Below are positions 6,576 to 38,267 of a stretch of 64,000 nt of DNA, piece by piece. Source of the DNA: a phage; the NCBI GenBank assembly GCA_026165385.1, contig GCA_026165385.1_4524.1; one strand, 5' to 3'. The translations under genes were made by a program, and so were the position numbers. Every line of letters starts with the position of its first letter. Position 1 is the stretch's first letter. The notes below the pieces were generated by a model. The model was not told the DNA's origin. It searched no databases and saw only the letters and a program-made list of their open reading frames with translations.

Positions 6576-8144
6576 ATGACTACTATCAAAACTAAAGCTC
6601 AGCTCGTAGACAAATGGAAAGAACTGCTGGAAGGTGAAGGCCTGCCGGAAATCGCTAATAGCAAGCAGGCTATTATCGCTAAAATCTTCGAAAACCAGGA
6701 AAAAGATTTCGAAGTATCCCCTGAATATAAAGACGAGAAAATCGCTCAGGCATTTGGTTCTTTCTTGACCGAAGCTGAAATTGGTGGTGACCACGGTTAT
6801 AATGCTCAGAACATCGCAGCAGGTCAAACCTCTGGTGCAGTAACCCAGATTGGGCCAGCAGTTATGGGTATGGTTCGTCGTGCTATTCCTAATCTGATCG
6901 CTTTTGATATTTGTGGTGTTCAGCCTATGAACAGCCCAACCGGTCAGGTATTTGCTCTCCGTGCAGTATATGGTAAAGACCCTATCGCTGCTGGCGCTAA
7001 AGAAGCTTTCCATCCGATGTATGCCCCAGACGCGATGTTCTCTGGTCAGGGTGCTGCTAAGAAATTCCCAGCTCTGGCTGCTGACACTACTACTGTTGTA
7101 GGTGATATCTATACTCACTTCTTCCAGGAAACTGGTACTGTATATCTGCAAGCTTCTGCCGTCGTAACACTTGATTCTAGTGCAACTGATGCAGCTAAAT
7201 TAGATGCAGAAGTTAAGAAACAAATGGAAGCTGGTGCACTGGTAGAAATCGCTGAAGGTATGGCTACTTCTATCGCTGAACTTCAGGAAGGTTTCAACGG
7301 TTCTACCGATAACCCATGGAATGAAATGGGCTTCCGTATCGACAAACAAGTTATTGAAGCTAAATCTCGTCAGCTGAAAGCAGCTTACTCCATCGAATTG
7401 GCACAAGACCTCCGTGCAGTACACGGTATGGATGCTGATGCTGAACTGAGCGGTATTCTGGCTACAGAAATTATGCTAGAAATCAACCGTGAAGTTGTTG
7501 ATTGGATTAACTACTCTGCACAGGTTGGTAAATCTGGTATGACCCTGACTCCGGGTTCTAAAGCTGGTGTATTTGACTTCCAGGACCCGATTGATATCCG
7601 TGGTGCTCGTTGGGCCGGTGAAAGCTTTAAATCTCTGTTGTTCCAGATTGATAAAGAAGCAGTTGAAATTGCTCGTCAAACCGGTCGTGGTGAAGGTAAC
7701 TTCATTATCGCTTCCCGTAACGTAGTTAACGTACTGGCTTCAGTTGATACTGGTATTTCTTACGCTGCACAGGGTCTGGCTTCTGGTTTTAATACCGACA
7801 CTACTAAGTCCGTATTTGCCGGTGTACTCGGTGGTAAATACCGCGTATACATCGACCAGTATGCTAAACAGGATTACTTCACCGTTGGTTACAAAGGCGC
7901 TAACGAAATGGATGCAGGTATTTACTATGCTCCTTACGTTGCACTCACCCCACTGCGTGGTTCCGATCCTAAGAACTTCCAGCCGGTAATGGGCTTTAAA
8001 ACTCGTTACGGTATCGGTGTTAACCCGTTTGCTGAAAGTTCCCTACAGGCTCCAGGTGCTCGCATCCAGTCCGGTATGCCGTCTATCCTGAACAGCCTTG
8101 GTAAGAATGCTTACTTCCGCCGTGTATATGTAAAAGGCATCTAA
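6576..8144 (+). CDS. 23: Major capsid protein gp23
   Basis: 522 aa; matches T4 gp23 (T4 is 521 aa); highly expressed-type codon usage. Confidence 0.98.
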   Translation: MTTIKTKAQLVDKWKELLEGEGLPEIANSKQAIIAKIFENQEKDFEVSPEYKDEKIAQAFGSFLTEAEIGGDHGYNAQNIAAGQTSGAVTQIGPAVMGMVRRAIPNLIAFDICGVQPMNSPTGQVFALRAVYGKDPIAAGAKEAFHPMYAPDAMFSGQGAAKKFPALAADTTTVVGDIYTHFFQETGTVYLQASAVVTLDSSATDAAKLDAEVKKQMEAGALVEIAEGMATSIAELQEGFNGSTDNPWNEMGFRIDKQVIEAKSRQLKAAYSIELAQDLRAVHGMDADAELSGILATEIMLEINREVVDWINYSAQVGKSGMTLTPGSKAGVFDFQDPIDIRGARWAGESFKSLLFQIDKEAVEIARQTGRGEGNFIIASRNVVNVLASVDTGISYAAQGLASGFNTDTTKSVFAGVLGGKYRVYIDQYAKQDYFTVGYKGANEMDAGIYYAPYVALTPLRGSDPKNFQPVMGFKTRYGIGVNPFAESSLQAPGARIQSGMPSILNSLGKNAYFRRVYVKGI

Positions 8145-8168
8145 TCTTAATTGATTAAATCTTATTTT

Positions 8169-8186
8169 GGGAGACTTCGGTCTCCC
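8169..8186. terminator. UUCG-tetraloop terminator between convergent gene 23 and the 89 aa ORF
   Basis: GGGAGAC-TTCG-GTCTCCC followed by ATTTTTGGTTTT. Confidence 0.75.
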
Positions 8187-8196
8187 ATTTTTGGTT

Positions 8197-8466
8197 TTAT
8201 TTCTGTGCAATTTCGATGTAAGTTTTCAAAATATTTTGCCAATTAGGCATACCTTCTTGGACATATGCCGGAGAACCGTCTTTGTTTTTGAATGATGCAA
8301 GTTTATCAGTGGCCCAATAACCTTTAGCTCGAGCTTCAGAATCAACTTTCATCCATACTTTGTTGAAGGCATTACCATTAACTTTTGCACCATATTTTTC
8401 TACTAACTTAACTGCTTCAGCTTCCAGAACTTTTAAAGTATCTCGTAAGAAACGTGCTTTAGTCAT
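8197..8466 (-). CDS. Hypothetical 89 aa protein between genes 23 and 24
   Basis: ORF on the opposite strand to the flanking late genes; has its own GTTTAC/TACTAT early-type promoter and a Shine-Dalgarno sequence; occupies the slot where T4 carries segD. Confidence 0.5.
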   Translation of the reverse strand: MTKARFLRDTLKVLEAEAVKLVEKYGAKVNGNAFNKVWMKVDSEARAKGYWATDKLASFKNKDGSPAYVQEGMPNWQNILKTYIEIAQK

Positions 8467-8496
8467 TTTGTTTACTCCTCTGTAGTTGATAAGTCT

Positions 8497-8526
8497 ATAG
8501 TATCACATACCAAATACGTTGTAAAC
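8497..8526 (-). promoter_or_regulatory. Early-type promoter (GTTTAC-N18-TACTAT) for the 89 aa ORF
   Basis: Minus strand GTTTAC...TACTAT about 30 nt upstream of the ATG at 8466. Confidence 0.55.
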
Positions 8527-8532
8527 AATCTT

Positions 8533-8540
8533 TATAAATA
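8533..8540 (+). promoter_or_regulatory. Late promoter TATAAATA for gene 24
   Basis: Exact TATAAATA 28 nt upstream of the gene 24 ATG. Confidence 0.7.
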
Positions 8541-8567
8541 ATCTATATCACATAAGGAAAAAATGCA

Positions 8568-9851
8568 ATGAGTAAAATCCAAAAATTATTGCGTGAATCT
8601 ACAACGTCTACTAGCAACTCAATTGGTCGCCCAAATCTCGTTGCTTTGACTCGCGCTACGACTAAATTAATATATTCTGACATTGTAGCAACACAAAGAA
8701 CTAATCAACCTGTTGCTGCTTTTTATGGTATCAAATATCTTAACCCAGATAACGAATTCACATTTAAAACCGGTGCTACTTATGCAGGCGAAGTTGGATA
8801 TGTAGACCGAGAAAAAATTACTGAGCTCACAGAAGAATCAAAAGTCACACTAAATAAAGGTGATTTTTTCAAATATAATAATATCGTCTATAAAGTGTTA
8901 GAAGATACACCATTTGCAGATATTCAAGAAAGTGATCTAGAATTAGCTCTTCAGATTGCAGTCGTTCATTTAAAGGTACGGTTATTTTCAGATGCAGCGG
9001 TAACAAGCAAATTTGAAAGCTCTGATAGCGAAATTTCTGATGCAAGATTCCAGATTAATAAATGGCAAACTTCAGTCAAATCTCGTAAACTTAAAACTGG
9101 CCTCACGGTCGAATTAGCGCAAGATTTGGAAGCGAATGGATTTGATGCCCCTAACTTCTTAGAAGATTTGCTTGCTACTGAAATGGCAGATGAAATTAAT
9201 AAAGATATTCTTCAGTCTTTAATTACTGTATCGAAACGTTATAAAGTTACTGGAATTACTGACACCGGATTTATTGACTTGAGTTATGCATCAGCTCCAG
9301 AAGCAGGTCGTTCATTATATCGAATGGTGTGTGAAATGGTATCACACATTCAAAAAGAGACAACTTATACTGCAACGTTTTGTGTAGCCTCAGCTCGTGC
9401 AGCTGCTATTCTTGCTGCTTCTGGTTGGTTAAAACATAAGCCAGAAGATGACAAGTATCTTTCACAAAATGCTTATGGATTCTTGGCAAATGGATTACCT
9501 CTTTACTGCGATACCAACAGTCCGTTAGATTATGTTATTGTGGGTGTTGTAGAAAATATCGGCGAAAAAGAAATTGTAGGGTCCATCTTTTATGCTCCAT
9601 ACACTGAAGGAGTAGATTTAGATGACCCGGAACATGTTGGTGCTTTTAAAGTTGTAGTTGATCCAGAAAGCTTGCAACCGTCTATTGGATTATTGGTTAG
9701 ATATGCTTTATCGGCAAATCCTTACACTGTAGCAAAAGATGAAAAAGAAGCGAGAGTAATTGATGGCGGGGACATGGATAAAATGGCAGGACGTTCAGAC
9801 TTGTCTGTTTTACTCGGTGTTAAATTGCCTAAAATTATTATAGATGAATAA
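8568..9851 (+). CDS. 24: Capsid vertex protein gp24
   Basis: 427 aa (same as T4 gp24); gp23-like fold region visible (shared motifs with gp23); late promoter upstream. Confidence 0.95.
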   Translation: MSKIQKLLRESTTSTSNSIGRPNLVALTRATTKLIYSDIVATQRTNQPVAAFYGIKYLNPDNEFTFKTGATYAGEVGYVDREKITELTEESKVTLNKGDFFKYNNIVYKVLEDTPFADIQESDLELALQIAVVHLKVRLFSDAAVTSKFESSDSEISDARFQINKWQTSVKSRKLKTGLTVELAQDLEANGFDAPNFLEDLLATEMADEINKDILQSLITVSKRYKVTGITDTGFIDLSYASAPEAGRSLYRMVCEMVSHIQKETTYTATFCVASARAAAILAASGWLKHKPEDDKYLSQNAYGFLANGLPLYCDTNSPLDYVIVGVVENIGEKEIVGSIFYAPYTEGVDLDDPEHVGAFKVVVDPESLQPSIGLLVRYALSANPYTVAKDEKEARVIDGGDMDKMAGRSDLSVLLGVKLPKIIIDE

Positions 9852-9883: not shown

Positions 9884-10882
9884 TTATGATACTAATTCAA
9901 TCCATGCAGGACGCAGAACATCTTGCACCATTCGGACTAATTCTTTCTTAACAAGGTTCGGATTATCGGATGATGTTAATACAATACCTTCACGAGAAGT
10001 TTCTTCCAGAATATCTTGAACGGTCAATCCCATCACTTTGCCGAAATCTTTTGGCGTTACAGCCCCAATCTTAGAAATCACATTATTAACACGATTTAAT
10101 GTAACATAACAAGCTAGAACATCAAGCAAGTTTTTGTCAATTTCGGTTAATGGAACCTGAGTTTTAATAGGCTTATCAGACTTTTTCTTTTCACTGAATT
10201 TAGAGTTCTTGCACTTAATAGCTACACGAGTACCGTTTGGCAGCCATTTAGGGAAACAAGGCTTCAGAACATAACCTTCTGCCGTATTATCGCCAATAAC
10301 ATTAGCGTCAAATACACAATTATTTGCTTCTACAAGGTCTTCTGACGCAGTAGCATTATAAGCGGCTAAGACAGAATCAAGGTCATTTGGAATCATGATA
10401 AGAGCATCAAATGTGCCACGTCCAAGCATTGGTGCCATTTTAAAACCGAATTCATTACAGAAATCTTGCATTTCATAATCGGTCAAATACGTATTATCAC
10501 CACTTTCTGTATTGATAAGGATATCGAACACATAAAAATCTTTTTCACCGTAGTCAACACCTTTCTGGATTCCACCACCAGCGAATTCACCGAATACTTG
10601 ATATGATACGGCTCGAGCTGTGTACATGAATTCCTGAACGGCTTTAATAGCTTTATCATACTTCTTGAGTACGATTTCATAACCATAAAAATCTTCTGCT
10701 GGAAGAATAGGGCCTGTGCGCTTGGCGCATGTGACGTTGTCACGTTCAATTATTAACGAGAAGTTAGTCCCATGGATTTTCTCACGTGCTACCCAAACGC
10801 CAGTAGTCAAACCATTAGTGTAGAGTTTTTCAATAAACTTAGAGTTGTAGTGGTTTTCAAGACTGCTGTATTTCTTAAACAT
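9884..10882 (-). CDS. rnlB: RNA ligase 2 (Rnl2)
   Basis: 332 aa; matches T4 Rnl2 including the ligase KxHGxN motif (EKIHGTNFS). Confidence 0.95.
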
Positions 10883-11253: not shown

Positions 11254-11450
11254 TTCTTCACCTTTTTGTTAATAAAACGTTTACGGTATACGACTTTTTC
11301 TTTTGCTTTAAACTTTGACCGAGCTGTCTCGGCTTTAGTCCATAGTAATCCAACTTCTTTAGGTTGTAAACCAATTTTTTGAGCAATTTCTACGAATGAA
11401 AATCCCGCCTCATGTAATGTATAAACTTCAACTTCAGCTCTCATAATCAA
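11250..11450 (-). CDS. Small basic protein with helix-turn-helix-like segment
   Basis: 66 aa; segment GFSFVEIAQKIGLQPKEV resembles an HTH; basic C-terminus. Confidence 0.45.
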   Translation of the reverse strand: MIMRAEVEVYTLHEAGFSFVEIAQKIGLQPKEVGLLWTKAETARSKFKAKEKVVYRKRFINKKVKK

Positions 11451-24124: not shown

Positions 24125-24154
24125 ATAGTATCACACATCCATGTGTTTGTAAAC
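24125..24154 (-). promoter_or_regulatory. Early-type promoter (GTTTAC-N18-TACTAT) upstream of ORF 23802..24095
   Basis: Minus-strand motif abutting the alt stop codon. Confidence 0.55.
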
Positions 24155-34705: not shown

Positions 34706-34735
34706 ATAGTATCACAACTCCACCATGTTGTAAAC
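34706..34735 (-). promoter_or_regulatory. Early-type promoter (GTTTAC-N18-TACTAT) upstream of ORF 34440..34676
   Basis: Minus-strand motif. Confidence 0.55.
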
Positions 34736-38237: not shown

Positions 38238-38267
38238 ATAGTAACACCTTCCTTGGTGTTTGTAAAC
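38238..38267 (-). promoter_or_regulatory. Early-type promoter (GTTTAC-N18-TACTAT) upstream of alc
   Basis: Minus-strand motif abutting the rnlA stop. Confidence 0.55.

Follow-up and report, generated by a model that had tools for sequence, protein, structure and literature searches.

A conserved 89-residue gene behind a predicted early promoter between capsid genes 23 and 24 of Mosigvirus phages

Introduction

In the phage genome analysed here, a short open reading frame (ORF) lies between two late capsid genes and on the opposite strand from both. Its position raises the question of whether it is a gene at all, when it would be expressed, and what its product might do in the infected cell. 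The stretch of DNA that was analysed, referred to below as the window, is 64,000 nucleotides of one strand of contig GCA_026165385.1_4524.1. A first-pass annotation of the window had been made from the sequence alone, and its claims are taken up below where the results bear on them.

Results

Genomic setting and the 23–24 slot

The window belongs to an RB69-like T-even (T4-family) phage of the genus Mosigvirus. Positions 7300–9400 are 100% identical to Escherichia phage ChristianSchoenbein, and approximately 120 Mosigvirus records align to positions 7900–8800 over at least 80% of that length. The gene order in this region is gp21, gp22, gp23, the 89-aa ORF, gp24 and rnlB. The gp23 (6576–8144) and gp24 (8568–9851) genes are on the plus strand. 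The ORF (8197–8466) and rnlB (9884–10882) are on the minus strand, with the ORF antisense to the late capsid genes that flank it. The first-pass annotation had placed a minus-strand ORF of 89 aa in the 23–24 slot, and it is recovered at exactly the same coordinates.

Among T-even phages the 23–24 slot is polymorphic. It is empty, contains segD alone, contains the ORF alone, or contains both the ORF and segD. In most Tequatroviruses the slot is empty; for example, RB14 has an 82-nt spacer. In T4, as the first-pass annotation had it, and in some other phages, the slot contains segD on the minus strand. The Mosigviruses carry the 89-aa ORF family, and the Dhakaviruses and Gapriverviruses carry a diverged allele of the ORF that adjoins a tandem gp24 duplication. 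The comparison of this interval across T-even phages, which the first-pass annotation had proposed as a check, finds the ORF in the same slot and on the same strand in all three of these genera. The approximately 120 Mosigvirus records, together with JS98, VR20 and LHE83 (the Dhakavirus and Gaprivervirus genomes examined), carry the ORF without any endonuclease. The ORF had also been described as inserted between the major capsid and vertex genes. This location is correct, and the direction of change is not assignable in a slot that is polymorphic.

Two further features of this region were observed. The tandem duplication of gene 24 (24a and 24b) beside the slot is present in Dhakavirus, Gaprivervirus and related metagenomic T-even phages (L002 1–2399, L003 1–2394, L012 337–2901 and L014 338–2897), and the window contains a single gene 24. 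In Erwinia phage Gravdalen (Winklervirus; L009 2399–3143), the 23–24 slot contains a homing endonuclease and a 30-aa annotated ORF that overlaps its start, and a DprA-like gene is present between gene 24 and rnlB. The Gravdalen arrangement is further evidence that the 23–24–rnlB region is an insertion hotspot.

The ORF is a conserved protein-coding gene

The ORF starts with ATG, runs for 89 codons and stops at TAA. A Shine-Dalgarno sequence, GAGGAG (8480–8475, minus strand), is located 8 nt upstream of the ATG and is kept in RB69, LF82-3 and JS98. The translated ORF matches the PHROG 6003 HMM over its full length (E 2.1e-45; residues 1–89 against profile positions 1–90 of 90). In JS98 (Dhakavirus) and VR20 (Gaprivervirus), the slot is filled by homologues of 88–93 aa with 30–38% identity, again on the antisense strand. 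Two metagenomic T-even contigs contain homologues in the same slot that are 61% and 34% identical. In codon-level comparisons, dN/dS is 0.125 between JS98 and LF82-3, 0.158 between the window and the family member P0006, and 0.09 between JS98 and VR20. Six residues (K3, F6, G31, N32, N35 and Q70) are invariant across three phage lineages. The identical protein is present on 262 contigs, on every one of which it is named "hypothetical protein", and the gene is annotated in about 240 phage records.

The ORF is a real, protein-coding and conserved gene under purifying selection. It is small and has no known domain, and the RB69 reference annotation contains only two fragments of it, as might be expected of a chance ORF without a product. 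The comparative data refute this reading and leave it practically no probability. A chance ORF would not account for dN/dS of 0.09–0.16, for an exact protein on so many contigs, or for orthologues that keep their length and position at 30–38% identity, and it sits poorly with a strong ribosome binding site, a promoter and a confident predicted fold. The first-pass annotation had allowed that the ORF would be a random one if it were not conserved in close relatives; instead, orthologues occupy the same slot in three genera.

The gene is not a new find. Public records already list it, along with its family and the predicted early promoter, as features that have yet to be characterised. It carries a "hypothetical" annotation in hundreds of phage genomes and is therefore an ordinary gene, not a surprising one. 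The lack of an assigned function, as given in the first-pass annotation, agrees with all sources, which name the product "hypothetical protein", and with PHROG 6003, to which no function is assigned.

Orthologues and distant members of the family

The members of PHROG 6003 include JS98 orf173, VR7 gp190 and VR20 gp246, RB69ORF188c together with RB69ORF189c, and ABPH49 AXN57849. Like these, the window ORF gives a full-length match (E 2e-45 to 1e-14 across members), falls in the range of 84–93 aa and is basic. An NGN..N motif is common to the members and is relaxed to HGN in one of them (P0023). The T-even members also share the slot and the strand. The window ORF is the Mosigvirus allele, 30–38% identical to the Dhakavirus and Gaprivervirus alleles, and does not differ from them in kind.

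More distant members (P0009, P0016, P0021 and P0023) match PHROG 6003 with E values of 2.5e-49 to 1.4e-14. One distant member, with approximately 35% identity, is found in Acinetobacter phage ABPH49 (Vequintavirinae) and another at a similar identity in a contig related to ABPH49. Each of these two is surrounded by many small genes on its own strand, in a long array. A third (approximately 35%), from a siphovirus-like contig, has the tail genes on one side and the replication genes on the other. The gene has moved horizontally into unrelated phages.

Just downstream of one distant member, a stretch of approximately 80 nt (L006 6657–6737) has 89% identity to unannotated DNA of Erwinia Felix-O1-like phages. 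This stretch may be a tRNA or other small RNA gene.

A predicted early promoter upstream of the ORF

A predicted T4-type early (sigma-70) promoter is located upstream of the ORF on the minus strand (8526–8497). It consists of a –35 element GTTTAC (8526–8521) and a –10 element TACTAT (8502–8497), with TG at 8505–8504. Taken as TTTACA-17-TACTAT, the two elements are 17 nt apart, and the –10 element is TG-extended (TGaTACTAT). The promoter ends 31 nt upstream of the ORF ATG, and transcription would be expected to start near 8490 on the minus strand.

Over the 64 kb of the window, GTTTAC-N17-19-TANNNT is found 16 times where 3.0 occurrences are expected, a 5-fold enrichment, and none of 100 shuffles reaches 16. 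All 16 are on the minus strand, as are the early genes, and several have the extended form GTTTACAA...GTGATACTAT in common. Examples of such early-promoter-like motifs are found at 11342–11371, 24125–24154, 34706–34735 and 38238–38267. In RB69, the orthologous site is a predicted early promoter, Pe:109605, with a score of 29.9 (published in 2006). An early promoter is also annotated here in GenBank record OL960576. The GTTTAC/TACTAT promoter that the first-pass annotation assigned to the ORF is thus borne out as a sequence feature, both by its enrichment and by its RB69 counterpart.

The late promoter of gene 24, TATAAATA (8533–8540, plus strand), is annotated in OL960576 and corresponds to RB69 Pl:109573. 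The two promoters stand back-to-back, with 7 nt between the late promoter and the early –35 element, and the late promoter serves gene 24 and not the ORF. The late TATAAATA motifs in the window have the reverse strand bias, with 15 on the plus strand and four on the minus strand.

No transcriptome for any Mosigvirus was found in the literature. Expression of the ORF probably begins in the first few minutes after infection, an assignment made because of its promoter class and, indirectly, because T4 segD lies behind a colinear promoter. That the ORF is a real gene and also has an early-class promoter is, taken jointly, highly probable.

Upstream of T4 segD, a sigma-70-like promoter, ATTTACA-17-TGaTATTAT, is found on the minus strand in a segment (NC_000866 107233–107322) that is colinear with window positions 8467–8567. 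As in the window, it is back-to-back with the gene 24 late promoter. In T4 omics data, segD is classed as "early-RNA_middle-Protein" and its protein is detected. A review from 2010 found no identifiable segD promoter and guessed that its transcripts would be vanishingly rare.

The UUCG hairpin downstream of the ORF is the terminator of gene 23

A hairpin, GGGAGAC-TTCG-GTCTCCC, is located at 8169–8186 and is followed on the plus strand by the T-run tail TTTTTGGTTT. In the terminator scan, it scores as an intrinsic terminator on the plus strand only. Read on the ORF strand, the loop is CGAA, the tail is AAAAUAAGAUUU without a U-tract, and the fold is –13.5 kcal/mol. The same UUCG hairpin follows gene 23 in T4 and in RB14, where the slot is empty. 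For RB69, the TransTerm prediction of Nolan et al. places the hairpin on the plus strand only.

The plus-strand-only U-run, the presence of the hairpin beside an empty slot in RB14 and the plus-strand-only TransTerm prediction identify the hairpin as the terminator of gene 23. This is not congruent with the first-pass annotation, in which the UUCG terminator was the ORF's own. An intrinsic terminator for the ORF would have a GC-rich hairpin and a U-tract on the transcribed strand, and the hairpin has no U-tract on that strand. For the ORF transcript it could serve as a weak terminator or stabilise the 3' end, but no more than that. No other minus-strand terminator was found by the scan in 7800–8900, so read-through into antisense gene 23 is plausible. 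VR20 differs in that a T-tail is present on the ORF strand too, and read-through is therefore not a conserved feature.

Divergence, cassette exchange and decay

Between the window and JS98, amino acid identity is 34% for the ORF compared with 84% for gp23 and 71% for gp24. The flanking genes have thus changed far more slowly than the ORF.

LF82-3 (PV660447; L008 2346–3432) matches the window at 96–100% identity throughout gp23 and over the greater part of gp24. The slot between them contains a JS98-type allele of the ORF (90–93% nucleotide identity to JS98), followed by a SegD-like GIY-YIG endonuclease that has 57% amino acid identity to T4 SegD. A single promoter precedes both the ORF and the endonuclease. 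The upstream breakpoint of this cassette is at the GAGGAG ribosome binding site, and the gene 23 hairpin marks the other. In 31 phage records there is an endonuclease with at least 95% identity to that of LF82-3. The LF82-3 locus is a clean cassette replacement, of the kind that homing-associated co-conversion would give. The first-pass annotation considered the ORF to be a different gene in place of segD. For LF82-3-type Mosigviruses this does not hold, since they carry both genes behind one promoter. Apart from this point and the terminator, that annotation is by and large correct.

In the RB69 reference (NC_004928 109210–109632; L005 6211–6633), a +1 insertion and a –1 deletion disrupt the ORF, and a cluster of substitutions surrounds the first indel. 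The annotation accordingly lists two short genes, RB69ORF189c (29 aa) and RB69ORF188c (41 aa). The break is the result of either laboratory-strain decay or old sequencing errors. Truncated copies are also present in phage mogra and a few other entries. The gene is dispensable and accessory, since most Tequatroviruses do not contain it and RB69, mogra and others contain broken copies.

Properties and predicted fold of the protein

The product is a soluble, cytoplasmic protein of approximately 10 kDa and is basic (pI 9.6). Every full-length family member computed has a pI of 8.0–9.8, and in nearly all of them it is about 9.6. The AlphaFold2 model has a pLDDT of 88.5 and a pTM of 0.76, from an alignment of only 15 sequences. 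In this model, a helix at residues 3–25 and a helix at 31–48 are followed by a beta-hairpin (56–60/66–70) and a C-terminal helix (76–88).

Sequence, profile and structure searches found no homologue or structural relative of known function, and searches of Pfam, NCBIfam, PADLOC and the PDB found no catalytic or other known domain. The structure prediction and remote-homology search suggested by the first-pass annotation therefore give a confident model and no relative of known function. NCBIfam and PADLOC returned noise only. The profile search of PDB sequences gave no match below E 0.025, and no fold relatives outside the family were detectable in the PDB or BFVD. In window positions 7900–8800, nothing in Rfam reached the gathering score. 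A context search of IMG/VR and JGI metagenomes returned T-even genomes only. No literature was found that names RB69ORF188c/189c, VR7ORF190c, the JS98 locus tag or phrog_6003.

Several candidate assignments were rejected. Membership in DUF4859 was rejected at 17.9 bits compared with the Pfam cut-off of 22.6 bits, with matches from only three near-identical members of 15. The ORF is not a SegD-like protein, as it has no GIY-YIG Pfam match and only the sub-threshold DUF4859 match. SegD has 223 aa, and a protein of 89 aa could not accommodate both its GIY-YIG catalytic domain and its DNA-binding region. The top Foldseek matches in the PDB include the winged helices of DnaD-N, ORC2 and Cdt1 and small transcription factors. 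The resemblance is remote and does not amount to a significant superposition on winged-helix domains, and a winged-helix DNA-binding fold was not assigned.

When 1.84 billion representative proteins were searched exhaustively with the HMM, 10 matches were returned, and the true family is a handful of clusters. Three matches fell outside the family, and all three were rejected. Two of them (P0022 and P0024) are giant Big_2 or filamin Ig-repeat proteins whose scores are sums of eight and 11 weak repeat stretches. Ig-like domains are all-beta and are therefore incompatible with the mostly helical model of the ORF protein. The third, P0020, is an assembly chimera. P0006 (90 aa; L012 3001–3273) has the JGI name "NADPH-dependent curcumin reductase CurA". 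A length of 90 aa is incompatible with this name, which is treated as a mis-annotation.

Discussion

A proposed role for the ORF

The explanation that best accounts for the locus, and to which we give about an even chance as a whole, is that the ORF is an accessory, non-essential gene of the T-even gene pool whose product acts on the host. Within minutes of infection, unmodified host RNA polymerase would transcribe it from its own T4-type early promoter. The transcript would be translated from the strong Shine-Dalgarno sequence. Without a canonical intrinsic terminator, the transcript would end or be trimmed at the gene 23 hairpin, or would continue antisense into gene 23 until stopped by Rho. 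The product is predicted to be a compact helix-helix-beta-hairpin-helix protein of 10 kDa, basic and cytoplasmic. Most probably it would act through stoichiometric binding to a single host macromolecule, in host takeover or counter-defence, and would matter on some hosts only.

We infer the expression timing, the binding mode and the target class. Binding to a host factor is suggested by the early promoter, the strong ribosome binding site, the small, basic and non-catalytic product, and a gene that is dispensable, patchy and horizontally moved, and that diverges fast between lineages while purifying selection acts within them. Small T-even early accessory proteins usually bind one host component. 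The role is argued from the class of gene and not from the protein; by this analogy we put it a little short of even.

Examples of the class in question are the early proteins of Mosigvirus AV110, including Emp/Gp94, and the T4 proteins Alc, AsiA, Arn and Dmd. Like the ORF product, these proteins are no larger than about 10 kDa and are encoded behind sigma-70-type early promoters, and they are non-essential, patchily distributed and fast-evolving. Unlike them, the ORF stands alone in the late structural block and not in an early gene cluster, and it has no homology to any of them. The AV110 early proteins were screened for host inhibition, with candidates chosen by similarity to T4 early proteins. 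The ORF has no T4 homologue and was therefore not in that screen.

In a narrower version, the product acts early against a strain-specific component of E. coli, in counter-defence or host takeover, and its fold has no detectable relative in the PDB or BFVD outside its own family. We regard this as possible but rather doubtful. It would explain the presence of two alleles with 34% identity in nearly identical Mosigvirus backbones, the jumps into Vequintavirinae-like and siphovirus genomes, and the decay in laboratory strains.

Alternative explanations

The product could instead bind DNA or RNA and regulate phage genes, for example capsid gene expression or early transcripts. The pI of about 9.6 in nearly all members fits this reading equally well, and the predicted topology recalls a winged helix, remotely only in the Foldseek comparison with the PDB. 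The position between genes 23 and 24 is also fixed in three genera, and retention of this exact slot could point to a connection with the capsid genes and not with the host. We consider a regulatory nucleic-acid binder unlikely. An RNA-level role would make the reading frame secondary, with an antisense "anti-late" transcript over the 3' end of gene 23 as the functional element. The lack of a U-tract terminator on the ORF strand, and of any other minus-strand terminator in 7800–8900, would permit such a transcript, and anti-late RNA is a classical observation in T4. However, an RNA-only role cannot explain selection on the protein sequence, with invariant residues and a length kept at 30% identity, and in VR20 the ORF strand does have a full terminator with a T-tail. 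An RNA-level element is accordingly very improbable.

In another alternative, the ORF is a part or a passenger of the homing-endonuclease cassette and is kept by travelling with segD-like genes. In T4 the slot holds segD itself, behind a promoter region colinear with that of the ORF. In LF82-3-type phages, the ORF and the endonuclease form one promoter-to-hairpin cassette that is swapped as a unit between flanks of 96–100% identity. The ORF and T4 segD share the slot, the antisense strand, the colinear promoter and the gene 23 UUCG hairpin downstream. They differ in length (89 and 223 aa) and in that SegD is a free-standing GIY-YIG homing endonuclease, and there is no sequence or domain similarity between them. 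The many Mosigvirus records, JS98, VR20 and LHE83 that carry the ORF without an endonuclease argue against a passenger, as do the purifying selection on the protein and the lack of an endonuclease beside the distant relatives. We hold the passenger reading to be improbable, and an early accessory gene with a host-directed product remains the explanation that we prefer.

Significance

As it stands, the ORF is one more annotated "hypothetical protein" among many small T-even early genes, and its significance is limited. The colinear promoter suggests a route by which T4 segD is expressed early, despite the review that found no promoter for it. The two diverged alleles, in cassettes with or without a SegD-like endonuclease, offer a neat case in nature of homing-associated allele replacement at a site between capsid genes. 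The ORF, a single gene with a single promoter, is also a clean stand-alone candidate for anti-defence and host-takeover screens, and it is one that screens based on T4 homology miss.
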